Below the pieces are notes generated by a model that searched no databases, had not been told where the DNA came from, and saw nothing but the letters and a program-made list of their open reading frames with translations. From positions 3,330,653 through 3,394,652 of the forward strand of contig NC_057756.1 in assembly GCF_004010195.1 (NCBI RefSeq): a DNA stretch of 64,000 nucleotides. Direction: 5' to 3'. This DNA is from Chiloscyllium plagiosum. Taxonomy: Eukaryota. Made by a program: the position numbers and the translations under genes. Of this stretch, positions 1 to 61,381 are shown one piece after another. Position 1 is the stretch's first letter; every line of letters begins with the position of its first letter.

Positions 1-220
1 CCACTACAGCGGATAGCTGAAACTGACAACCGGAAGCGGCAGGGGCAGGCCACTATAAATGCCGGAGGAAACACCACAGAAGCGCTTCACAGGAGGCTCC
101 CAAGCACTGAGGATGTCACCTAGACAGGGGACGAAACGTTTGCAACAAAAACTTCCAGCTTGGCGAACAGAACCACAGCAACGAGCACCCGAGCTACAAA
201 TCTTCTCACAAACTTTGAAC
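1..220 (+). mobile_element. 3' terminus (pLTR region) of a Penelope/Poseidon-type PLE, truncated by the window edge
   Basis: Near-identical to the 3' ends of the PLE arms at ~59957-60134 (+) and 56287-56500 (-); contains a hammerhead motif. Confidence 0.9.
104..143 (+). ncRNA. Minimal type I hammerhead ribozyme motif in the PLE terminus
   Basis: gca-CTGAGGA-t-GTCACCT-agac-AGGGGAC-GAAAC-GTT-tgc: CUGANGA core, stem II, GAAA, palindromic AACGTT stem III, GCA/TGC stem I. Confidence 0.8.
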
Positions 221-749
221 ACCTATTCAGTTCAAGAAGGCAGCTTTACAAGGATGTGTAATAAACGCTAGCATTGTCAGAGCACTCACATCTCAGGAAC
301 AAGTGAAAAAGCAGCATGTTGTGTGTGAGATCTGTAAGCACTGAAAGGGTTACACTGAGGGATGTGGTTTCCACTTGCTTCTTTTGTAGGTGTCCTCCAA
401 GAACTTTATCACTGAGAATAGGTGGAAGTTTCACTTGTTGCCCCAGTGGTAAGAGAGTGTCTAGACCGGACAATGGGGAGTGGGGGAGGGGGACAGAGCT
501 GAGGGTGTAGGGGGGAGGCGGGGTGGGCCAACCTGCACCTCTTTGAGAGAACATGTATTCATGTTCCAGTGGGTGAAGATGCCTCAGTAAGAATATGTGA
601 GCACTTGAAAAGACCACCATTGGGCAGAGAGCACGCTCGGAGCGGCAGAGTAAATGCAGAACATCAGAGAACATGGTGTCACTAAATCTGGAAGCCCTGT
701 GCCTTGCCTGATGCACCTATTTTTCCTTACCTTCAGTCAGTCGCAACCT

Positions 750-15009: not shown

Positions 15010-15220
15010 TTTCGAATCCATCACCTTCATCCGCACCTCCATCCACTTATTGCACTCTTGGCTACCTTCTCCCCAGCCCCACCCCTACTCCAATTTATCT
15101 CTCCCCCGCGGAGGCTCCCTGCCTCATTCCTGATGAAGGGCTTTTGTCTGAAACGTCGGTTTTCCTGCATCTCGGATGCTGCATGACGTGCTGCGCTTTT
15201 CCAGCACCACTCTAATCTGG
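15010..15220 (+). mobile_element. Neptune PLE terminal fragment
   Basis: Homologous to 1740-1857 (cctcattcctga.gaagggctt...ggatgctgc.tgac.tgctgc.ct.ttccagca). Confidence 0.8.
15126..15162 (+). ncRNA. Hammerhead ribozyme motif with canonical core
   Basis: CTGATGA-a-GGGC-tttt-GTCT-GAAAC-GTC: canonical core and GUC cleavage triplet. Confidence 0.75.
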
Positions 15221-21999: not shown

Positions 22000-23625
22000 C
22001 CAAATGCCTATGTCTTGAAAATACCATGTTAGAGATCAGGAGGTGCTGGATGTATTCAAACACATGAAGGTGGGTAAATCCCCATGACCTGATCAGATGA
22101 CCCCTGGAACCCTCTGGAAAGCTACAGAAGTGATTGTTTGGCCCATTGCTGAGATGTTTCTGTCATTGATAGTCACAGGCGATGTGTTAGAAGACTGGAG
22201 GTTGGCTAACATGGTACTGCTCTTAAATAAAGGTGCTAACGACAAGCCTAGGGACTATTGACCGGTGACCATGACGTGAGTGGTGGGCAATTTGTTGGTG
22301 CAAATTGTGAAAGATTGGATTTTATTGGTTTTGAAAAGGCAAGGACTGATTAGTGATAGTCAACATGGCTTTCTGCTTGGGAAACTATGTTTCACGACGT
22401 TGATTAAATTTTTTGAAGAAATAACAAAGAGGGTCGATGAGGGCAGAGTTAGGAACGTGATCCATGTGGACTTCAGTAATGCGTTCGACAAGTTTGCGAT
22501 TGGAAATTGGTTGTGTAGGTCAGATCTCGTGAATTCAAGGAGAACTATCCATTCAGATGTAGAACTTGTTCGAAGGTAAAAAAAAAACAGTGTGCTTTTG
22601 ATCTGTTTTTCAAACTGAAGGACTGTGACCAGTGGAATGCAATGAGGATCCCTGTTGGGTCCACTACTTTTCGTCATTTATATAAATTATTTGAAAGTCG
22701 ACGTGGAAAGGATAGATAGTAAGTTTGCAGATAACTACTAAATTGGAGGTATACTTGAGAGTGAAAACGGTTACCTCAAATTATACTGGATCTTGATCAG
22801 ATAGGTCAATGATGGAATATAATTTAGATATACGTGAGGTGTTGCATTTTGGACAAAAACAAATCAAAGCAGGACCAATAGAATGAATAGTAATTCCCAA
22901 GGAATGTTGCTGAACCAAGAGACATTGGGTTGCATATTCATCGCTCTTTGAAAGTAGTGTCGCAGGTAGATAAAATTGTGATGAAGGCGTTTGGTATGCA
23001 TTCCTTTTTTTGGTCAGAGTATTGAGTATAGGAGTTGTGAGTTAACGTTGCATGTGCACAGGACGTTGGTTAGACCACTTTGGGAAGATTGCGTGCAGTT
23101 CTGGTCACCTCCCTCACCAAAAGACGTTGTAAAACTTGAAAGAGTTCAGAAAAGATTTAGAAGGATGGAGTTGGAGGATGTGAGCTACTGGGACAGCTGT
23201 ATGAGCTGGCATGGTATGCCCTGGATAGTCTGAGAATGAGGGTTGACCTTATAGAGGTTTATAAAACAATGAACGCCATGGATACCGGAAATATTCTAAG
23301 TATTTTCCCGGAGATAAGGTTTCCAGAACTAAAGGGGATCCGTTTCGAGTGAGAGTGGAAAGATGTAAAAGGGACAAAAGGGCAAACATTTTCACACAGA
23401 GAGTGGTGCAAGTTTGGAATGAGCTGCCAGAGGCAGTGTTGAGGATTGGTACAATTACAACATTTAAAATGTATCTGGATAGTTCTTTGAATAGGAAATG
23501 TTTTCACGGACATGAGCCAAGTGCTAGCAAATTAGTGAAGAGAAGGTTGGGAGATCGGGTCTACCTGGCCGAGTTGGAAAGAAAGATCTGTTTCCATGGT
23601 TTACATCTCTCTGATTCTTTGACTC
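22000..23625 (+). mobile_element. Degenerate CR1 LINE RT region
   Basis: SQHGFLLGKLCFTTLIKFFEEIT...HVDFSNAFDK; TLVRPLWEDCVQFWSP; VWNELPEAV. Confidence 0.9.
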
Positions 23626-23754
23626 TAGATCAGTACCGAAGTTTAATAGTGTGGGTGCACCACTGATTGACTTGTTGAAGGTGTGCCGAATATATATGAA
23701 AATGGAGAAATGTCAGCAGGCGTTAGAGATGCTCCTGTTCATTTACACGATGAT

Positions 23755-25610
23755 TCAAAGAGTCATAGAGATGTACAGCTTGGAAACATACCCTTCGGTC
23801 CAACCCATCCACGCCGACCAGATATCCCAACCCAATCTTGTCCCACCTGCCAGAACCCGGCCCATATCCTTCCACACCCTTCCTATTCATATACCCATCC
23901 AAATGCCTCTTATATGTTGTACTTGTACCCGCAACCACCACTTCCTCTGGCAGCTCATTCCATACTCGTACCATTCTCTGTGTGAAAACGTTGACCCGTA
24001 GGTCTCTTCTATATCTTTCCCCTCTCACACTAAACCTATGCCCTCTAGTTCTGGACTTCCTGACCCCAGGGAAAATACTTTCCATATCCATGGACCCTAT
24101 AATGTTGTAAATCTCCATTAGGTCACCCCTCAGCCTCTGACGCTCCAGGGAAAACAGCTCTAGCCTGCTCAGCCTCTCCCTATAGCCCAAATCCTCCAAA
24201 CCTGGCAACATCCTTGTAAATCTTTGATGAACCGTTTCAAAGTTCTCAACATCTTTCCGATAGAAAAGAGACCAGAATTGCACGCAATATTGCAACAGTT
24301 GCTGAACCAATGTCATGTACAGCCACAACATGACCTTCCAACTCCTGTACGCAATACTCGGGCAAATAAAAGAAAGCATACCAAATGCCTTCTTGACTAT
24401 CCTATCCACCTGCGACTCCACTTTCAAGGAGGTATGACCCTGCTTTCCAAGGTCTCTTTGTTCAGCAACGCTCCCCAGGACCTTACCATTCAGTGTATAA
24501 GTCCTGCTAAGATTTGCTTTCCCAAAATGCAGCACCTCGCATTTATCCAAATTAAACTCCATCTACCACCTCTCAGCCCACTGGCCCATCTGGTCAAGAT
24601 CGTGTTGTAATCTGAGGTAACCCGCTTCGCTGTCAGCTACAGCTCCAATTTTGGTGTCATCTGCAAACTTACTAACGGTAAATCGTATGCTGACATACAA
24701 ATGATTTATGTAAATGACAAAATGTAAAGGAGCCAGAACCGACCCTTGTGGCACTCCACTGGACACACGCCTCCAATCTGAAAAACAACGCTCCACCACC
24801 ACCCACTGTCTTCTACCTTTGAGCCAGTTCTGTCTCCAAATGGCTAGTTCACCCAGTATTCCATGCGATCTAATCTTGCTAATCAGTCACCCATGGGGAG
24901 CCATGTCGAACGCCTTACTGAGGCCTTACAGATCACATCTACTGCTCCATCCTCATCAATCCTCTTTGTAACTTCTTCAAAAATCTCAAATTTGTGAGAC
25001 ATAATTTCCCACGCACAAATCCATGTTGACTATTCCTAATCAGTCCTTGCCTTTCCAAATACATGATTCCCTCCAACAACCTGCCCACCACCGAGGTCAG
25101 GCTCACTGGTCTATCGCTCATTGGCTTGTCCTTACCACCCTTCTTAAACAGTGGCAACACGTTAGCCAACCTCCAGTCTTCTGGCACCCCACCTCTGACG
25201 ATCGATGATACAAATATCTCAGCAAGAGGCCCAGCAATTGCTTCCCTAGCTTACCACTGAGTTCCAGGTTACACCTGATCTGGTCCTGGGGTTTTATCCA
25301 TCTGCACACGTTTTGAGACATCCATCACTTCCTCCTCAGTAATCTGGACATTTTGCCAGATGTCACCCTCTATTTCCCGACATTTATATCTTCCATATCG
25401 AAAATACTCATTTAGTATCTCCCCAATTTTCTGCGACTCCACACAAAGGCCGCCTTGCTGATCGTTGAGAGGCCCTACTGTCTCCTTAATTACCCTTTTG
25501 TCCTTAATGTATTTGTAAAAAGCCTTTGGATTCTCCTAAATTGTATTTGTCAAAGCTATCTCATGCCCCCTTTTTGCCCTCCTGATTTCCCCTTCTGTAC
25601 ACTCCTACTT
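23755..25610 (-). mobile_element. CR1 LINE RT region
   Basis: PEDWRLANVLPLFKKG...SQHGFVRGK; GVPQGSVLAP...KFADDTK; MEFNLDKCEVLHFG...VWNELPEEVV. Confidence 0.93.
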
Positions 25611-43500: not shown

Positions 43501-45916
43501 CAGGCAAACCAACAAATGATTTAGACAAATTCCGTAGGGAGCAACATAAGCATAATGGTGAATAGAATGAAGAGATTCAGATAAAAGATCATCAATACTG
43601 CCATGTTCAATTGGAATATTGGCGGATAATCAAATGACTCATTGTAGGACGATGGTACGCAAATATCCCAGCATAACTGAGAACAAAACACTACACAAGT
43701 TCAAAAGAAGAATGTCCAAGCATTTGTACCAATTTTAAGCTAGAACCTCCGACAGGATGAATCATCTGACACTAATCCAATTGTCCGCAACATTTCTGAC
43801 ACCAGTCTTCAGCCAATTAAAACACTTCACGTGTTTTAAAAAAAATGTTTCGAGTTACTAGTTCTGCAAATACTTCGAGCCTTATCATTAATGAGAACAC
43901 AGGACACAAGGTTTGTGCACCAAAACTTACCACCAACCTAGCCACGCTGTTTGAATACAGTTGCATCATGAGCCTCTCATGCGGTAAGCAGTATTTGCCA
44001 CGTAATTCCAGTGATAAAAATGTAGGTCGGATCCACTCAAATCAATTGCCACCCCATTTGGCAACTTTTGTTCATCAGTTAAGCGTTTAAATCTGCGATA
44101 AAACAGCGCATGCTCAGCAATAACTTGCTCATTCTGCCAAACTTGTGGTATGTTGTACTCTACTCCTGGCGTTATTACAGCCTTGTTTCCACCATGGACA
44201 TAACTGTTTAATTTCGCCCATCCAAATCAAAGTCGGAATCGACCAACGCTGGCATAGAGGAGGCCGAGAAAAGCTATAATCAATAAGCATCAGCGGCAAA
44301 AGCGTTATTGTTCGGACCGAACTGGGGGACGACTTACCAGGGCTAAGCAATGGGGCACGGGTCAATGAGGCATAATCTGTCTGTGTTGCTCAGAGGAGAA
44401 TGGGGAAAAGGAGCTGAGCTTTACTCATTGCGATTCCACAGTTAGGAATCAGATAGTAGGTTTAGTGGAACGAGAGAGACTCACGATATTTTGTGTGTTG
44501 CCTCCCAGATGCCAGAGTTAGTGATGCTTCTGAAGGTGTTTTTGCGATCCTTGAGGTGGGGCGGGAGGTGCAGTTCCAAGTCGTGAGCCACACAGGCACC
44601 TACGACATATATCGGAAGAAAGGTGAGTATCTAAAGCAGAATTTCATGGAGCTACGTTGGAAGCTTCGACCTAGAACAAATAGAGTCGTTATCTTTGGTT
44701 TGTTGTCCATTCTTCATGCTCATGAAGTGAGGAACAGGGCGAGAGCGGAGAGGACCACATGCCTGCAAGGATGATGCCGGCCAGGAGAGGGGGGAAGTTG
44801 TATTCTTGCATAATTGGAGTTCTTTCTTGGGAAGGTGAGACATCGAAAAAAAAGATGGTCTCCACCTTAACCGGAGGGGTACGAATATCATCGGGTTGGG
44901 GTAGAATTTTCTAATGCTCTTCCGGGGAAAGGGATTCTGATTTGTAGTTCCAGTGTAGAGGAAGTTGAGGTAGTGAGGGCAGTGATTGGTTAACATGGTC
45001 ACGAGAAAGCACCTGCAATCAGGATGTCGGGTTAAAATGTGTATATTTCAATGCCAGGAGCATCATGAATAAGTTGGATGAACGTACAGAATGGTTTAGT
45101 ACCTGGGATTTCGATGCTGTGACCATTTCAGAGACATGGATAGATGAAAGACAGTAATGTTTGTTGCAGATTCCGGGATTTAGGTGGTTCAGTAAGAACA
45201 GAGAAGATGATAAAAGGTGTGTATGGATGACAGAGGTTGGTGGTAGAATGGAAATATTTATGCTGGAGCTCAGTTACCAGTGGTGTGCCGCAAGGATCTG
45301 TTTTAGTTCACTGTGGATTGTCATTTTTATAAATGATTTGGATGTGGGTGTAGAAGAATGGGTTCATAAGTTTGCGGATGACACGAAGGCAGGAACTATT
45401 TTGGATAGCGCCAAAGCATGTGGCAGGCTACAGAGGGACATAGACAAGATGCAAAGCTGGGATTAGAAGTGACAAATAGAGTTTAATATGGAGAAGTGTG
45501 AGGTAGTTCATTACCTAGAAGTAATCAGTGTGCAGTGTATTGGTCTAATGGTAATGTTCTTGGCACTGTTGCTGAATAGAGGGATCTTGGTGTCCAGGTG
45601 CAAAAATCCCTTACAGTTGCCATCCAGGTTCGTAGGGTACTTAAGCAGCCATATGGTGTGATTGCGTTAATTGATGCAGGCATTGATTTTCGGAGTCATG
45701 CGGTCATTCTTCAGCTTTACAAGACACTGATAAGGCCTCCTCCGGAGTACTGCATACAGGCCTTGTCATCACATTCGAGGAAGGATATGAAAGCATTGGG
45801 AAGGGTTCAGAAGAAAATTATTAGGATGTTGCCTGGCATGGAAAGAAGGTCTTAGGATGAAAGGCTGAGGGAACTGAGTCTGTGTCCGTTGGATAGGAGA
45901 AGTTTGAAAGTTGACT

Positions 45917-46640
45917 TAGAACATGGAACATAGAAAAATACAGCGCAGTACAGGCCCTTTGGCCCTCGATGTTGCGCTGATCCAAGCCCACCTAGCCCAC
46001 TATCCTCCATATGCATATCTAATGCCCGTTTAAATGCCCATAAAGAGGGAGAGTCTACCACTGCTACTGGCAGGGCATTCCATGAACTCACGACTCACTG
46101 AGTAAAGAATCTACCCCTAACATCTGTCCTATACCTACCACCCCTTAATTTAAAGCTATGCACCCTCGTAATAGCTGACTCCATACGTGGAAAAAGGTTC
46201 TCATGGTCAACCCTATCTAAACCCCTAATCATCTTGTACACCTCTATCAAGTCACCCCTAAACCTTCATTTCTCGAATGAAAACAGCCCCAAGTGCCTCA
46301 GCCTTTCCTCATACGATCTTCCTACCATACCAGGCAACATCCTGGTAAACCTCCTCTGCACCCGTTCCAGTGCCTCCACATCCTTCCTATAGTATGGCGA
46401 CCAAAACTGCACACAATACTCCAGATGCGGCCGCACCAGAGTCTTATACAACTGCAACATGACCTCAGGGCTCCAGAACTCAATTCCTCTACCAATATTA
46501 AGCCAGTACGCCATATGCCTTCTTCACCGCACTATTTACCTGAGTCGCAACTTTCAGAGATCTGTGTACATGGACACCAAGATCCCTCTGCTCATCCACA
46601 CTACCAAGTATCCGACCATTAGCCCAGTACCCCATCTACT
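45917..46640 (-). mobile_element. Young 5'-truncated CR1 nested in a CR1
   Basis: agaacatggaacatagaa tail; [52 protein letters not shown]. Confidence 0.92.
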
Positions 46641-53915: not shown

Positions 53916-54570
53916 TCCGCAGCAAAAAAAACACATAACGATAGGACCTTCACTTAGCTGTTCCATTTATACGCTCAGCATTGTATTTATTCTGATGTTA
54001 CCAGAGGTTCAACGTTGGATGTATGAATATTCTTCTTTAAGATCCTGAGGTAGCTACTGAAGCGTAAGATTACATTTATAAGAAACTCACAACAACCTAC
54101 TGAGTACATTTTGCGGACACACGGCGATTTTGGAACCCTGGGTATTCTCAAGGGCAGACAAAAGTCATGATTAATGCAACGAGCTTAAGATGTTAAAAGA
54201 TCTGTTGAAAACAACATAATTTAAAATTACCGAAAAAGGATAGGCAAAGGTGAGATTCTGATGAAAGGTCGCAATCTTATTTCTTCAAATTAATTGATAA
54301 TCAGCTCTCCTTACAGTTATGCAGGAACTTATTTTGAAGTTATGCATGACGTGTATTTTGCAATGTAATTTTTAAAAAGTAGAGATGCAGAAAGTCAGTC
54401 TTCTTTTCACATATATCGATGATGTTCACAGTTGCAAACGAATGGTGAATACAATTTTGTGATTCTCTGATATGCGAATCCCTGCAATTGTTTTGTGAAT
54501 TTGCTGTACTTGGTGATGTAACTTCAGCAGAAATATTAATTTGCGTTTGCTTTTATGTGTGAATTCACAG

Positions 54571-54591
54571 ACCTTCAAAGAAGCCAAGCAG
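54571..54591 (+). CDS. 21-nt phase-1 heptad micro-exon, DLQRSQA
   Basis: Acceptor tttgcttttatgtgtgaattcacAG; exon ACCTTCAAAGAAGCCAAGCAG; donor CAG|gtaaga; 15/21 identical to 11849-11869. Confidence 0.8.
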
Positions 54592-56286
54592 GTAAGATGT
54601 TAATAAAATAAGATATCTCAGAAGTCTGTACAACTTCAGAAAATGGAGCATCTTAAAAGTAAGGCTTGCTGCTTCTTCACCGAGTGCTTTGTATCACACA
54701 AACTTTTCCTTCAGTTTCGATCTGGAAAAAACTTAAACAATAAAAAGTAATTTAAATTATAGACTGCATGTATGTTGGAGCTTTGTAATTGTTCTTCATT
54801 CGAGCCATGCTTTTGACTATTTGGCTGTGGTAACAATTTCAGATTTTCTAAGCATATTTAAAATGTGTTTAAGATGCTTCACTTTGGACTCACATTCAGC
54901 ATGCCTATTCACAATGTCAATGTCAAATGTTTGCTTATGGGGGTGGATGTGACGTTTTTATTTCAAACTGAAAATTTATTTTTTTAGTTTTCTGTGGATC
55001 TTATTTTTATCAGCCATTAGATTGTAAGCGCCATTGCTTCACGATTGATATGATCTCGGTTTCCGAAGTGAGTTGGTGACAGGACCAAATACTGGACAAG
55101 ACAGATGGCATGCATTCGAACAATTGGAAGTTATTAGCTGTTTTCAAATAAAAAGGCATTGTCTTGGCAATCTATGAGTACTGACGCAGTGGTGGTCTGT
55201 AAAGCTGCGAAAATTAATTGTAGATGTTCAGATATTGGTGTTCCAAGGTATGTAGAAAGGTTACTGAAAACCAGAAGAGTGATTAAGAACATCAGGGTTT
55301 CTGGTTACTTGTTGTTTTAGCTTTTTCGTTTAAGAGATGCTAAGAAGAAGAAAATGCAGCATTAGATTTTTGGTGAATCCCATATAGATCCAACATGGAA
55401 ATGGAGAAAGTAGTCATATCTTGATATGTCAGTCGGATTCTGCTTCCCCAATATCGATAGTCCTCACTTTGTCTCCATATCTCCACAACTTGTAAGCATA
55501 GTATTAATGAATTCAATCAACAGATGCAATGGGAGAGTCAATACGAGTGCGAATCTGGTGACAAAATAGTCTAACAGTCGAATGTTACCATTTAATTTGG
55601 TGTGACCTGAACGTTTCATAGCAAATCTAATATGCAACGGTGATTTGTGTCCAATCAAATCACATTTCTCATGTTTCGTTAGTTGTAGAGTTAACACAGT
55701 TCAGGAGAAATACGACAGCGTAACATTTCAGTTCATCAACAGAATCAAGACTATATTCTTGTGTTGCACATCTGCTTCTTCGTAGTAGATAAGAAATCGA
55801 CTATTTCATAAATATGGAGAACGGAAGGGGAGACTTAAGCTTTTTGCAGCAGCAACAGAGAGTTCGTGGTAACAAAGCAGAGCATTGATTGAGTAGAAGT
55901 GAACGTATCAATTTGCATCAAAATGTAACGTGAAAACTATTAAAATGGGAGGTGAAACATGAGAGAACTTGTTTTTTTTAAAAGTGACCTACATACATAT
56001 TCAAATACTTTACAGTATTTCTGTGATTTCAAACGGCCCATGCTCTTTTTTGCCTCAAGAATCAAGTTTGGCTCCTATCATGACAGATTGCCAGTTTGAT
56101 TAAATACATTTTTATTTTTGAAAGCAAAATCCATTGTCATTCTTTTAATCTCTGCAATAATGTACCAGAGGATCACACTGGAAAATACATGGTTGCCCAT
56201 TCTGTGGGCTCTTGAATTGTAATTTAAACCACTTTTCTATTGAAAGGAAATAAAAATGCTCAAGGTTTGTCGGGATAAACTATGCT

Positions 56287-58157
56287 CAAAGTTTGTGAGA
56301 AGATTTGTAGCTCGGGTGCTCGTTGCTGTGGTTCTGTTCGCCGAGCTGGAAGTTCTTGTTGCAAACGTTTCGTCCCCTGTCTAGGTGACATCCTCAGTGC
56401 TTGCGAGCCTCCTGTGAAGCGCTTCTGTGGTGTTTCCTCCGGCATTTATAGTGGCCTGTCCCTGCCGCTTCCGGTTGTCAGTTTCAGCTGTCCGCTGTCG
56501 TGGCCGGTATATTGCCGGTATATTGGGTCCAGGTAAATGTGTTTGTTGATGGTCTTTGTGGATAAAGTGCCATGCTTCTAGGAATTCCCTGGCTGTTCTT
56601 TGTTTGGCTTGCCCTATAATGGTAGTGTTGTCCCAGTCAAATTCATGTTACTTGTCGTCTGCGTGTGTGGCTACGAGGGATAGCTGGTAGTGTCGTTTCG
56701 TGGCTAGTTGATGTTCGTGGATGCGGATCGTTAGTTGTCTTCCTGTTTGTCCGATATAGTGTTTTGTGCTGTCCTTGCATGGGATTTTGTACACTACATT
56801 AGTTTTGCTCATGCTGGGTATCGAGTCCTTCGTTCTGGTGAGTTGTTGTCCGAGTGTGGCTATTGGTTTGTGAGCTGTTATAAGTCCTAGTGGTCGCAGT
56901 AGTCTGGCTGTCATTTCAGAGATGTTCTTGATGTATGGTAGTGTGGCTAGTACTTTGGGTTGAGGCATGTCCTCGTTCCGTTGTCGTTCCCTTGGGCATC
57001 TGTTGATGAAATTGCGAGGATATCCGTTTTTGGCGAATACCTTGTATAGGTGTTCCTCTTCTTCTTTTTGCAGTTCTGGTGTACTGCAGTGTGTTGTGGC
57101 CCTTTTGAATAGTGTCCTGATGCAGCTTCGTTTGTGTGTGTTGGGGTGGTTACTTTCATAGTTTAGGACTTGGTCTGTGTGTGTGGCTTTCCTGTGTACC
57201 TTAGTGGTTAATTCTCCGTTTGGTGTTCTCTGTACCAACACCTCTAGGAATGGGAGTTGGCTATCCTTTTCTTCTTCTCTCGTGAATCGGATTCCTGTGA
57301 GTGTGGGGTTGATGATCCGGTGTGTTTTCTCTATTTCTGTGTTTTTAATGATTACAAAGGTGTCATCAACGTATCTGACCCCGAGTTTGGGTTGAATTTG
57401 TGGTAAGACTGTTTGTTCTAACCTTTGCATTACTGCTTCTGCTATGAGTCCCGAGATCGGTGAGCCCATGGGTGTTCTGTTGATTTGTTCTTATATCTGG
57501 TTGTTGAATGTGAAGTGTGTTGTGAGGCACAAGTCCAGTAGTTTAAGTATGCCGTCTTTGATGTTGTTGTCTGTTATGTCTGTTCAGCAGGTTGGCTATT
57601 GTTTCTCTGGCTAGGGCTTTGTCAATAGAGGTGAACAGTGCCGTTACGTCGAATGAGACCATGGTTTCTTCCTTGTCTATGTGTGTATTTCTGATGATGT
57701 CCAAGAATTCCTGTGTTGATTGTATAGAGTGTCTGGATCCGCTGATCAGGTGTTTCAGTTTCTGCTGTAGTTCTTTCACCAGTTTGTGTGATGGTGTCCC
57801 TGGTAGTGATACTATGGGTCTGAGTGGGATGCCTGGTTTGTAAACTTTAGGTAGTCCATAGAATCTGGGGGTGTTGTTGCTTTCAGGTATCATTATTTGT
57901 AGGTCAGACCTGGTTATCTGTCCGTTTTTTTTTGGAGGTTCCTCAGTGTGTTGTTTATCCTATTGGTGAGCTGGGGGGTGGGTTCAGCTCACCTCTTTTG
58001 GTAGGTGTTGATATCTGCAAGTAGTTGTTGTGCTTTTTGGATGTACTCTGCTTTGTCCAGGATGACCGTCATTCTGCCTTTGTCTGCTGGTAGTATGATT
58101 ATGTTCTTATCTTTTCTTAGTGATTTTAGTGCTTCCCTCTCCTTGGTGTTGAGGTTA
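56287..58157 (-). mobile_element. Penelope/Poseidon-type PLE, left arm (RT + GIY-YIG; frameshifts and a premature stop)
   Basis: NIIILPADKGRMTV; FYGLPKVYKPGIPLRPIVS; MVSFDVTALFTSI; MGSPISG...RYVDDTF; VVYKIPCKDSTKHYIGQTGR; hammerhead at 56361-56400. Confidence 0.95.
56361..56400 (-). ncRNA. Minimal type I hammerhead ribozyme motif
   Basis: Reverse complement gcaCTGAGGAtgtcacctagacaggggacGAAACgtttgc. Confidence 0.8.
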
Positions 58158-60134
58158 TCCTGCACTAATCCTGCGCCAACCGCCTCAGCGCCACATACGA
58201 ACAATTCCAGTTGCTGCATGAATGCCGAAAGAATCGAATCCTTCCACCAAGTGTCAGATACAGACCGCCAGTCAACAACCCACAAGCCAGGGACACAGCC
58301 AGACAGAACGGACCCAGGATGATCCAGGTAATGATTACAGACGCTCACAACAGACTTCACAGATACAGACAAGAAATTGCGCGCCAAAAGTCGTTAATTT
58401 CAAAAACCACTAATCAGGAATGGTCCCGGACCATAGAACAGGCTGTCACCATAGGACAGAACAAGACTACACACCTCAAAAAAACGGCACTAAAAGAAAA
58501 TATGGCCAAACTATCACACAACAAAGAGGACACCACAACACACACCTGGGTTAAAAACTTCTCCCTCAGACAGCTCACAGACACAGAAAGAACAATACTG
58601 GCCAAGGGACTCAACTACAACCACAGGGACGCCAAGACAGCAGACTTCCTAGCAGCACGAGAATGCACACTCAAGAACAATGGACTGACAGAGGAGACAC
58701 AACAATCAGTGAGACAAAGTATCGTACCCCTGATAACAAGGAATAGCCAACCTGCTGAACAAACATAACAGACAACAGGACGTTGAACCTATCAACAAAG
58801 ACGGCATACTTAAACTACTGGACTTGTGCCTCACAGCACACTTCACATTCAACAACCAGATATACGAACAAATCAACGGAACACCCACGGGCTCACCGAT
58901 CTCGGGACTCATAGCAGAAGCAGTAATGCAACGGTTAGAACAAACAGTCTTACCACAAATTCAACCCAAACTCCCATTCCTCGACGTGAGGGTACAGAGA
59001 ACACCTAACGGAGAATTCACCACCAAGGTACACAGGAAAGCCACACACACATACCAAGTCCTGAACTATGAAAGCAACCACCCCAATACACACAAACGAT
59101 ACGTTGATGACACCTTTGTAATCATTAAAAACACGGAAATAGAGAAAACACACCGGATCATCAACTCCACACTCACAGGAATCCGATTGACGAGAGAGGA
59201 AGAAAAGGACAACCAACTCCCATTCCTAGACGTGAGGGTACAGAGAACACCTAACGGAGAATTCACCTCCAAGGTACACAGGAAAGCCACACACACAGAC
59301 CAAGTCCTGAACTATGAAAGCAACCACCCCAATACACACAAACGAAGTTGCATCAAGACACTATTCAAAAGAGCCACAACACACTGCAGCACACCAGAAC
59401 TGCAAAAAGAGGAAGAGGAACACCTATACAAGGTATTCGCCAAAAACGGATATCCTGGCAATTTCATCAACAGATACCTAAGGGAACGACAACGGAACGA
59501 GGACATGCCTCAACCCAAGGACTAGCCACACTGCCATACATCAAGAACATCTCTGAAATGACAGCCAGACTACTGCGACCACTAGGACTTATAACAGCAC
59601 ACAAACCAATAGCCACACTCAGACAACAACTTACCAGAACGAAGGACCCGATACCCAGCATGAGCAAAACTAATGTAGTGTACAAAATCCCATGCAAGGA
59701 CTGCACAAAACACTATATCGGACAAACAGGAAGACAGCTAACGATCCGCATCCACGAACATCAACTAGCCACGAAACGACACGACCAGCTATCCCTAGTG
59801 GCCACACACGCAGACGACAAGTAACATGAATTTGACTGGGACAACACTACCATTATAGGGCAAGCCAAACAAAGAACAGCCAGGGAATTCCTAGAAGCAT
59901 GGCACTCATCCACAAACTCCATCAACAAACACATCGACCTGGACCCAATATACCGGCCACTACAGCGGACAGCTGAAACTGACAACCGGAAGCGGCAGGG
60001 AGAGGCCACTATAAAAGCCGGAGGAAACACCAAAGAAGCGCTTCACAAGAGGCTCCCAAGCACTGAGGATGTCACCTAGACAGGGGACGAAACGTTTGCA
60101 ACAAAACTTCCAGCTCGGCGAACAGAACCACAGC
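58158..60134 (+). mobile_element. Penelope/Poseidon-type PLE, right arm (N-terminal domain, internal deletion, RT core, GIY-YIG)
   Basis: LHECRKNRILPPSV...WVKNFSLRQLTDTERTILAKGLNYN; EQINGTPTGSPISG...YVDDTF; VVYKIPCKDCTKHYIGQTGR; hammerhead at 60060-60099. Confidence 0.95.
60060..60099 (+). ncRNA. Minimal type I hammerhead ribozyme motif
   Basis: gcaCTGAGGAtgtcacctagacaggggacGAAACgtttgc. Confidence 0.8.
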
Positions 60135-61289
60135 ATAAACTATGCTTTAAATAATTGTGAGCATTCTTGAGTTACCAAAACGAATCAATACGTGAATCAG
60201 CCTGCATTTATAATGAAAAGTGCGCATGCAGAAGCAATAATTGACAAAGTTGAGACAATTTGTAAAATATCTTTGCGCTGTGCAGATAATGTAATAAATT
60301 TGTTGTCAAGTACCTCAGTTCAGCAATTCTTCTGTTAAGACCTGATTGGTAAACAGATAGCAATGTGTTCGCAGGATCCAACAACATTCGGCATATTACA
60401 TTTAGAATTGCCTTGGTGACCAGGTGACTCTTTCCATATGAACTCCATAGATGTCACTGTCAAGACCATTGACATTTCTGTAACAACTCATCATTTGAAA
60501 AATCACTACTGGCCGTTTCTTAACTCAGTTGCTGGAACATTCGAAACATGATTGTATCTATGTAGATTGCGTTAACTTATATGGTGATGGACATGGGATG
60601 GTCAGATAGCCTGAAAACTGAGAAAATATTTTCAATACAGGTAAGAAACTGTATGATTCAGGGAAACGCCTAAAGGTGCGACTGACATTATTGTGCATGT
60701 CCACAAATCCTCACTTTTACAACAAAGGGAGATATGATCGTCGAGAAATTTTTAGTTAGATTGCCTTCATGAGACAAGGAATAGAGTTATTCCTTGTATA
60801 TGCATGAAGCTGGCTCGGCTAACCTTAATTGTCTTTCCTTCAATTAGCAAAGGCGATTAAAACTGGACCGCATGCTGTTCTCCCCAGTCTGAAATAACAC
60901 ACACGCGAGCCCCCAAATAAATCGAACATATTTTATTCACCAGAGGATTTAAATAACCCGGTTATAGATTTCTTCTGCAATGAATGACAGACTCTTGGTC
61001 ATCCTTGGCCTCTATAATAAATTCCAGTTCTAAGTATCGTAGACTTTGAGTTAAGATATTCACCATTGTCTGTTTCATAATTCGTTCCTCATGACATGTT
61101 TTGATCCTATTTAAGTAGCAGCATGATGTTAGAATTTGGTCATTAGTTGAAGAAACATTCCTTTGGAAATGTATACAACTTTGACTTGGACACAGGTAGA
61201 TTTTGGTTTGCCAAGCCAGTATACAGATTACATGAGGAATATGTTTGCATCAGAGTATGCACAGTGAAGATTGACAACACATTTTTTTT

Positions 61290-61381
61290 TAGATTACATT
61301 AGATTACATTACAGTGTGGAAACAGGCCGCCGCCCACCACTGTGCCACCGTGCCGCCCACCACTGTGCCACCGTGCCGCCC
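61290..61381 (-). mobile_element. Collapsed HE1-type SINE: tail joined to a tandemly repeated 5' head
   Basis: tagattacattagattacattacagtgtggaaacaggcc + gccgccc + (accactgtgccaccgtgccgccc)x2; flanking cacattt duplication. Confidence 0.85.

Follow-up and report, generated by a model that had tools for sequence, protein, structure and literature searches.

How does one retroelement come to lie head-to-head with itself, both 3' ends facing outward, inside a single target-site duplication (TSD)? The question is raised by an insert of 3848 nt between TSD copies in Chiloscyllium plagiosum, within the 64-kb stretch of DNA that was analysed here (the window). We read it as a single insertion event in which both target ends were extended from element 3' ends, and give this reading a probability of about 0.9. 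The two-armed shape itself is of a kind already published and adds nothing new. The insertion's one unusual feature is a complementarity between its arms: the segment that one of them skips begins, within a few nucleotides, where the other stops. This is likely the record of a template jump made during copying, and for the whole account, the forward jump on RNA included, we consider the odds even.

Two unequal arms in one duplication

The bounding repeat, ATAAACTATGCT, is 12 bp long and lies on the plus strand at 56275-56286 and 60135-60146. A repeat search found exactly these two occurrences in 64 kb, and no match of any kind in 100 shuffles, which bears out the perfect 12-bp TSD reported in a preliminary description of the locus. 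At both ends of the insert the TSD shares one nucleotide (A) with element sequence; on the left, where the last base of the TSD overlaps the next element base, this comes from alignment with another copy at window positions 1-221. The left arm runs on the minus strand from 58158 to 56287, and the right arm on the plus strand from 58167 to 60134. They meet at 58158/58167, almost exactly where their join had been placed (~58157), through an 8-nt filler at 58159-58166. Positions 58157-58163 are repeated as 58168-58174, no other source of the filler was found within the window, and we infer that it is a prime-and-realign scar.

The arms pair over ~1.25 kb at ~96% (52 differences in 1248 aligned nt), and ~1.0 kb of this is reverse transcriptase-endonuclease (RT-EN) coding, less than the ~1.4 kb of RT-EN first claimed for both arms. 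They are unequal: the right consists of a segment A followed by a segment C, the left of a segment B and C, and the right skips the ~570 nt of B. Thus the idea of two oppositely oriented copies holds for the outward 3' ends and the head-to-head arrangement, but these are not plain copies, the right arm having both this internal gap and an internal duplication of 131 nt.

Beginning at its outer end, the left arm carries a 38-nt tail (56287-56324, minus strand, by alignment) that the right arm lacks; comparison of the arm ends agrees with the earlier estimate of ~38 nt of extra length. The tail is the distal 3' end, and 105 nt separate this from the ATG inside a minimal hammerhead-like motif (56361-56400, minus) that overlaps the start of the ORF (MSPRQGTKRL), as found by pattern and translation. 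Left-arm segment C (56325-57600, minus) comprises, from alignments and translations, the end of the RT core, the thumb, the GIY-YIG endonuclease and the terminal region, with stops at 57493-57491 and 56650-56648 and a 15-nt gap at 57565/57566. Segment B (NLNTKERE...DKG...SFDVTALFTS; 57601-58158, minus), in the left arm only, corresponds to the region of residues 265-449 of protein P0001.

In the right arm, segment A (ESCANRL...IVPLITR; 58167-58743, plus) is an N-terminal part of the ORF that the left arm lacks, 87% alike to P0001 residues 69-259. At 58742-58743 a microhomology of 2 nt links it to C. Right-arm segment C (58744-60134, plus), defined by alignments and an RVT_1 match (E 2e-5), ends without a tail 66 nt from the ATG, at a proximal 3' end; it has a frameshift near 59516-59519 and a stop at 59822-59824. 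Its hammerhead-like motif, again minimal and found by pattern search, occupies 60060-60099 (plus), with the ATG at 60069. An out-and-back copy of 59215-59345, 131 nt long, replaces 7 nt at 58969-59099 (plus), with microhomology-like edges of 6 and 5 nt. Of the 131 nt, 3 differ between duplicate and source, close to the background rate, which fits a copy made at the time of insertion. In the intact element A and B adjoin, as seen in P0001 (LITR-KRQTH-NLNTKE) and in family DNA, and between the end of A and the start of B the insertion leaves 11 nt of element coordinates.

Identity of the element

Translations of the arms contain DKG and YVDD motifs and match RVT_1 at E values from 2e-5 to 4e-11. 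The endonuclease piece can be aligned with P0007 across its GIY-YIG region (E 5e-27), and the direct Pfam GIY-YIG match is weak (E 0.006, below cut-off). The organization is that of an endonuclease-bearing (EN+) Penelope-like element (PLE): a single ORF, a PLE-type RT and then a C-terminal GIY-YIG endonuclease, with the motif VVYKIPCKDCTKHYIG...IHEH...ATH in the right arm and one Cys changed to Ser in the left. The linker cysteine cluster is absent from both arms, as in the Penelope/Poseidon clade. The nearest named protein is an uncharacterized one from Chiloscyllium punctatum (87%). Judged by sequence, then, this is a decayed endonuclease-bearing retroelement of Penelope/Poseidon type.

The pattern CTGAGGA...GAAA, which we take to be the hammerhead core, occurs at 56368-56397 (minus) and 60063-60092 (plus), the two arms and the copy at 107-136 agreeing exactly. 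An Rfam scan of the 64 kb gave no match at gathering score, and the folds were no better than those of shuffles. The hammerhead ascribed to each arm is present on both as a core pattern, and is best called putative.

EN+ PLEs are typically found as a unit with an inverted 5'-truncated copy, a one-sided tail of 30-40 bp and a TSD, according to the parts of three papers that describe it (Craig et al. 2021, PMC8557442 Fig. 2; Arkhipova et al. 2013, PMC3846280; Schostak et al. 2008, PMC2377424 Fig. 1C), and all three components are present here. The likeness extends to the head-to-head arms with outward 3' ends, the TSD around the whole unit, the large inverted repeats of variable size, and the hammerhead, or here hammerhead-like motif, in the terminal region. 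Unlike the common units, this one lacks a pseudo-LTR in direct orientation upstream: the long right arm begins beyond the terminal region, ~42 nt past the position of the tail, and no direct repeat of that region lies upstream. The same descriptions call such partial tandems frequent, not obligatory (PMC8557442, PMC3846280, PMC2377424), and the complementarity between the right-arm gap and the beginning of the left arm does not appear in them. The locus was first taken for a 'clean' snapshot of mechanism; the shape is instead textbook PLE, and the right arm has been rearranged twice.

Two ends probably primed and a probable common source

That one event, primed from two ends, gave rise to the unit, as the preliminary description proposed, is supported by the one TSD, by the 1-nt overlaps, and by the wider family, whose loose ends accumulate at 56286, the end of the tail, next to mixed AT-rich flanks (contigs: 142, 126 and 234; RNA reads: 67). 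It is supported, too, by PAc, the Poseidon element of Anolis carolinensis (Frangieh et al. 2024), which in vitro cuts and extends both strands, which is a predicted dimer, and whose two RT start sites bound the tail (PMC11167929, in the portions available). In both elements the ORF starts at stem II of the hammerhead, a putative one in the present copy, the presumed cut lies 26-28 nt downstream, targets are AT-rich and both strands are extended. Two 3' ends bound the tail near an AC-rich loop, at +66 and +105 here, with +111-118 named for PAc. PAc is active and was studied in vitro, in an account that, as far as available, does not deal with the joining of the two ends (PMC11167929), whereas the present copy is dead, rearranged and known from sequence. 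We found no other paper on PLE mechanism, and nothing specific was added by what we saw of a 2026 retrozyme preprint and of PMC8969392.

Could two elements have inserted independently at one place, or the assembly be at fault? The arms do differ by 4.2%, with an excess of synonymous changes, and neither the right TSD junction, nor the head-to-head junction, nor the A-C junction, nor the 131-nt duplication was seen among the independent records listed (a further 86,149 lay beyond the listing), in a comparison that stopped short of the right arm's 3' 1.3 kb and of the right flank. Yet a single TSD surrounds both arms and the centre holds no second one; 52 codon-biased substitutions, a one-ended tail and a perfect TSD are not what an assembler would create; and a like shape occurs in a distant host (locus L020), with a 13-bp direct repeat and 26 extra nt on one side. 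We regard both possibilities as very improbable. Misassembly at the left junction, in particular, is unlikely: the junction is present in another haplotype, whose flank (12 differences in 1916 nt) continues 24 nt into the tail, a bridge that at 24 letters on the element side falls below the 31-letter threshold.

An empty allele was to be looked for, and related species C appears to lack the insertion. There, one contig of depth 3.8, on which this result depends, follows the flank to 56285 and continues for 116 letters that were not aligned to the element, its side being set by a 30-nt overlap of two records. The flank has diverged from that of species C by 6.5%, against a background of ~2.3-2.8% between copies of the arms, and the insertion would thus be younger than the split between the two species.

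The arms appear to come from the same source. They have in common a stop inside the endonuclease through which all six relatives examined read (6/6), and minor alleles at 56753/59719 and 56862/59610 that were present in 0 of 38 and 0 of 41 RNA reads, respectively; the 56753 allele is frequent in species C, at about half of the depth. The source RNA would already have carried a dead endonuclease, and the protein was therefore presumably supplied in trans. A pure one-RNA origin predicts identical arms, however, and against it counts the finding that 19 of 40 coding differences are synonymous, where 11.2 are expected (p 0.005-0.006, with 2 edge codons and the non-coding end omitted; weighting for CpG left the outcome unchanged). 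Where the 131 nt are duplicated, it is the left arm that stands apart, at 9 of 12 sites (p 0.004). Within a 0.4-kb patch, chosen post hoc, 12 of 24 differences are synonymous (p 0.018), and outside it 7 of 16 (p 0.13). Clustering of the differences was not significant (p 0.06-0.18), and the longest identical run, 106 nt, is not unusual (p 0.39) and gives no direct sign of conversion. Since the synonymous excess coexists with the common stop and minor alleles, one arm is probably a mosaic, ~0.4 kb of which may derive from a different member of the family, either through a switch or through conversion at a later time.

Fold-back has been proposed for head-to-head PLE structures, in the form of self-priming suggested for Adineta elements (PMC3846280, in part): one end is primed once, and the second arm is copied from that cDNA or RNA. 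The stop and minor alleles common to both arms would suit such an origin, but A, B and the tail are arm-specific, and neither arm can then be a copy of the other; the junction has no palindrome, and the synonymous excess requires a second source. At this locus we think fold-back most unlikely.

The gap in the right arm

For priming at both ends, we picture the following sequence. The two ends of the 12-nt staggered cut would each prime reverse transcription, at one or the other of the element's start sites. The left end, primed at the distal site and so acquiring the tail, would copy C and B; the right end, primed at the proximal site, would copy C with one out-and-back slip (the 131 nt). The right-end cDNA might then dissociate, re-anneal by 2 nt just ahead of the first copy's stop, and go on to copy A. 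Finally, the two cDNA ends would be joined by microhomology, leaving the 8-nt realignment scar. A loose end of the family lies behind 58158 in 16 records of one set.

The step in which A is copied may be likened to L1 'twin priming and 5' switching'. For L1 twin priming, the available part of a preprint describes switching to upstream RNA not yet copied (bioRxiv 10.1101/2024.08.27.596794), and the section that treats L1 5' inversions reports internal breakpoints separated by 1-10 bp in all 32 cases (PMC11702581); the 11 nt between A and B are an abutment of that type. As far as these sources go, the two systems have in common two cDNAs from two target ends under one TSD, near-abutting breakpoints, an upstream switch and microhomology joins, but an L1 insertion has its second primer annealed inside the RNA and carries the 3' end on a single arm (bioRxiv 10.1101/2024.08.27.596794; PMC11702581; PMC2912911). 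Here both arms begin at the element 3' end and overlap by 1.25 kb before the jump, and segment C, with its 3' end, sits between A and the TSD in place of direct internal annealing. The insertion works like twin priming, then, and is not a canonical case of it. Judged by title and abstract, none of the papers we found on twin priming and Penelope elements is about PLE inversions.

Two other explanations of the gap have to be weighed against a template jump. In one, the right arm was first intact (A+B+C), and the resulting 1.9-kb inverted repeat with its ~590-nt spacer formed a hairpin that was cut at the edge of stem and loop, B being lost by end joining. This places the deletion edge at the mirror point with no jump by RT, it accommodates the 2-nt microhomology at the A-C junction, and asymmetric, symmetry-breaking deletions are the commonest rearrangement of palindromes (93% of 118) in the pertinent part of a review (PMC8701086). 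The review's data concern perfect palindromes, however, and spacers stabilize inverted repeats (PMC8701086); ~1.25 kb of inverted repeat at 96% survived; and the right arm bears a second switch-like scar, whose copies have diverged at about the background rate. We consider hairpin loss unlikely, though it deserves to be taken seriously.

In the other explanation the gap has nothing to do with the left arm: the source RNA was internally deleted, or a deletion occurred at random, and it was chance that put its edge near the mirror point. The family is rich in internal deletions—skips of 73, 201, 249, 391 and 648 nt are among the best 15 of 142 joints—and they occur in other PLEs, as one section of PMC3846280 describes, and the coincidence was spotted post hoc. 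The probability that a random edge lies within 11-20 nt of the A/B point, likewise computed post hoc, is 0.9-3.5% per deletion; and the A-C joint is not among the best-supported 15 of 142 family joints, and so is not evidently that of a multi-copy subfamily. Chance seems to us a rather poor explanation.

A template jump invites a broader and more tentative idea, one that we consider possible but would not bet on: that PLE integration is obligatory two-ended priming at two start sites of one RNA species, in which two RTs race and the leading cDNA, once displaced, moves on to the nearest RNA that the trailing enzyme has yet to reach and that is still un-copied. If so, gaps in one arm should end at the truncation point of the other, genome-wide and from birth, arms should share source-specific lesions, and the race would supply a missing step of the PLE cycle, the joining of the two ends. 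A single old locus cannot settle where arms come from, and its mechanistic value is modest. It does offer signatures that can be counted—A/B complementarity, the common endonuclease stop, codon-biased differences between arms—and these bear on whether PLE arms arise by fold-back, from two enzymes on one RNA or from two RNAs, and on how the cDNA ends are closed. Computation could put the question to the test in a genome so rich in insertions of this sort.

Elsewhere, a pattern scan of metagenomes gave 0 matches. A protein scan of 301 stretches gave 43 loci, all distant (28-61%), with an inverted pair of at least 40 nt in 27. Flanking repeats were examined at seven: one shows a 13-bp repeat and, on one side, 26 additional nt, four have repeats of 7-8 bp only, perhaps by chance, and two are cut by contig ends.

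The inverted repeat was also expected to lie in a probable intron and to form dsRNA, which has no support yet. A crude splice-site screen (40 candidates, no control) identified no host gene. In one RNA run, sampled at about 2 in 100, no aligned read fell on the unique flank at 54000-56253, and A>G and T>C changes (39 and 38) were not above G>A and C>T (42 and 49), a comparison of family reads that is uninformative on the present locus. The aligned reads numbered 861, mostly of one strand, and 25 of them matched at 99% or more.

Architecture of the insertion

The insertion is real, old and dead, and its kind is already known. In the whole 64 kb, the 12-mer ATAAACTATGCT occurs at 56275–56286, at 60135–60146 and nowhere else; none of 100 shuffles matched. 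The perfect 12-bp target-site duplication (TSD) of the preliminary description is borne out, as is its 3.85-kb spacing: the copies lie 3848 nt apart. Self-alignment pairs 56324–57600 inversely with 60135–58742. The arms are oppositely oriented, as claimed, but share 1248 aligned nt (with 52 differences) rather than about 1.4 kb of RT-EN. At its 3′ end, the left arm (minus strand) runs 38 nt farther along the element than the right, just as had been estimated, and the two meet at a head-to-head junction with an 8-nt filler, where 58157–58163 repeats 58168–58174.

What the arms encode is a broken RT carrying the DKG and YVDD motifs, then a GIY-YIG endonuclease that has the CCHH finger and lacks an additional finger in the linker, in agreement with the Penelope/Poseidon clade features given in PMC8557442. 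The best named match is P0001, an uncharacterized protein of Chiloscyllium punctatum (87% identity), whose N-terminus is the element's terminal region translated in frame across the hammerhead and tail—the layout described for PAc, the Poseidon element of Anolis carolinensis, in PMC11167929. The hammerhead reported on each arm is present as a motif, CTGAGGA…GAAA, identical at both ends, with a third copy at 107–136; we recognized it by the hammerhead core consensus. It finds no Rfam ribozyme match at gathering score and folds no better than shuffles, so that, on sequence, it is a motif match rather than a demonstrated ribozyme.

The two-armed shape is the typical one: an inverted 5′-truncated copy adjoining the element, with a one-sided 30–40-bp tail and an enclosing TSD (PMC8557442 Fig. 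2); inverted ends enclosed by 9- and 10-bp TSDs (PMC3846280); and large inverted repeats of variable size (PMC2377424 Fig. 1C). Among the best 15 of 142 joints, several are head-to-head junctions in other family copies. Two metagenome contigs carry distant PLE-like loci with inverted arms: L020 (1722–2523), flanked by a 13-bp direct repeat and extended by 26 nt on a single side, and L026 (2861–5706), with hammerhead-like motifs on both arms.

A gap in one arm that complements the other

Compared with P0001, the element's ORF falls into consecutive segments A (ESCANRL to IVPLITR), B (NLNTKERE to mid-RT) and C (the remainder). 'Two copies of one PLE' holds for the inverted arms, but not for their content: on the plus strand, the right arm joins A (58167–58743) straight to C, with 2-nt microhomology, whereas the left, on the minus strand, is B (58158–57601), C and the 38-nt tail. 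What the right arm is missing is thus very nearly the segment that opens the left, a complementarity absent from the preliminary description. Five residues separate A from B in P0001, and 11 nt in a loose end of the family (16 records).

We put at roughly one in two the probability that a jump of the right cDNA along its template accounts for the gap. By inference from PAc, which cleaves and extends both strands and starts RT at two sites bounding the tail (PMC11167929), a staggered cut 12 nt wide would let each target 3′ end prime at one of these sites, overlapping the element by 1 nt. L1 suggests by analogy that the right cDNA might then leave the template past C and re-anneal just ahead of the left cDNA's stop. 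L1 5′ inversions have internal breakpoints 1–10 bp apart (22 deletions and 10 duplications, n = 32; PMC11702581), and in 20 L1 cases one cDNA switched to un-copied upstream RNA (bioRxiv 10.1101/2024.08.27.596794). The main rival, that the inverted repeat was broken later at the stem-loop edge, is possible but doubtful; such breakage would give the same deletion edge (PMC8701086). That the edge lies near the mirror point by chance is unlikely, a random edge falling within 11–20 nt in 0.9–3.5% of cases by a post hoc calculation. The right arm also carries a 131-nt out-and-back duplication (58969–59099 copies 59215–59345, with 3 differences).

We did not find such a gap in the published PLE literature searched, which did not extend to the leading subscription articles on how PLEs are organized. 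From one locus, it gives the joining step of the PLE cycle a signature that can be counted.

Source and age of the arms

Both arms share a stop within the endonuclease domain (59822–59824 right, 56650–56648 left) that 6 of 6 relatives read through, which suggests an endonuclease-dead RNA mobilized in trans. They share two minor alleles as well, at 56753/59719 and 56862/59610 (0 of 38 and 0 of 41 RNA reads, respectively), the former common in organism C, the species behind run X10. The family variant data comprise 40 of 401 variant rows, the state at the stop codon lying outside them. Stop and alleles together argue for a common source. A single source throughout is disfavored: of the 40 coding differences over 336 codons, 19 are synonymous where 11.2 would be expected for these types of change (p 0.005–0.006, unaltered by CpG weighting), and at 9 of 12 sites within the duplication it is the left arm that stands apart (p 0.004). 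Most of the excess lies in a 419-nt block, 59098–59516 (12 of 24 synonymous, p 0.018; 7 of 16 outside, p 0.13), where divergence is 5.7% against 2.8% on either side; clustering of the differences is not significant (p 0.06–0.18). Read most simply, the arms share a source that was already defective, and one of them took a patch from another family member, either while being copied or by later conversion. A fold-back origin of the second arm is very unlikely.

An X1 contig over 54395–56310 differs at 12 positions, and so represents another haplotype; it enters the tail by 24 nt, short of our 31-letter bridge threshold. One X10 contig, from flanks diverged by 6.5%, matches up to 56285 and continues for 116 letters not aligned to the element. 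An empty site would explain this most simply, but the contig is of low depth and covers the left side only. These contigs bear on the left junction; the central, A–C and right junctions are known from the assembly alone. Two insertions or an artifact are nonetheless most improbable, both arms lying inside one TSD. Background divergence between the arms (2.3–2.8%) falls between the flank values of 0.6% and 6.5%, which fits insertion after the split from the X10 species and before the two haplotypes diverged.

Transcripts and other repeats

In contigs from three shark-type runs, element depth exceeds that of the flank 10^3–10^5-fold, with its maximum at the 3′ end, and family ends gather at 56286 with mixed, AT-rich flanks; 19 RNA reads terminate near 56327. 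We identified no host gene around the insertion. If transcribed through, the arms could, from their sequence, pair over ~1.25 kb around a 1.14-kb spacer. In the ~2/100 of one RNA run sampled, reads are family reads, mostly of one strand and not specific to this locus; the suggested A-to-I editing does not appear among them as an A>G or T>C excess, and there is no depth on 54000–56253, nor at 54571–54591 (+), a possible 21-nt microexon with an acceptor-like and then a strong donor-like site.

At 1–232 (+), clipped by the window start, lies another 3′ end of this family, the third; it is 96–97% identical to each arm and extends a few bases beyond the end of the left-arm tail. Pieces of a second PLE-like family lie at 982–1792 and 15122–15213, with a 94-nt palindrome (986–1079), a GIY-YIG-like frame that includes a cysteine pair (1094–1618) and hammerhead-like motifs (1769–1792, 15130–15153). 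LINE RT pieces form an old inverted pair at 22038–25333 (70% over 1.6 kb, ~125-nt spacer) and a second at 45537–46630. A perfect 23-nt tandem duplication at 61329–61374 adjoins a short repeat that recurs at 2772–2811.
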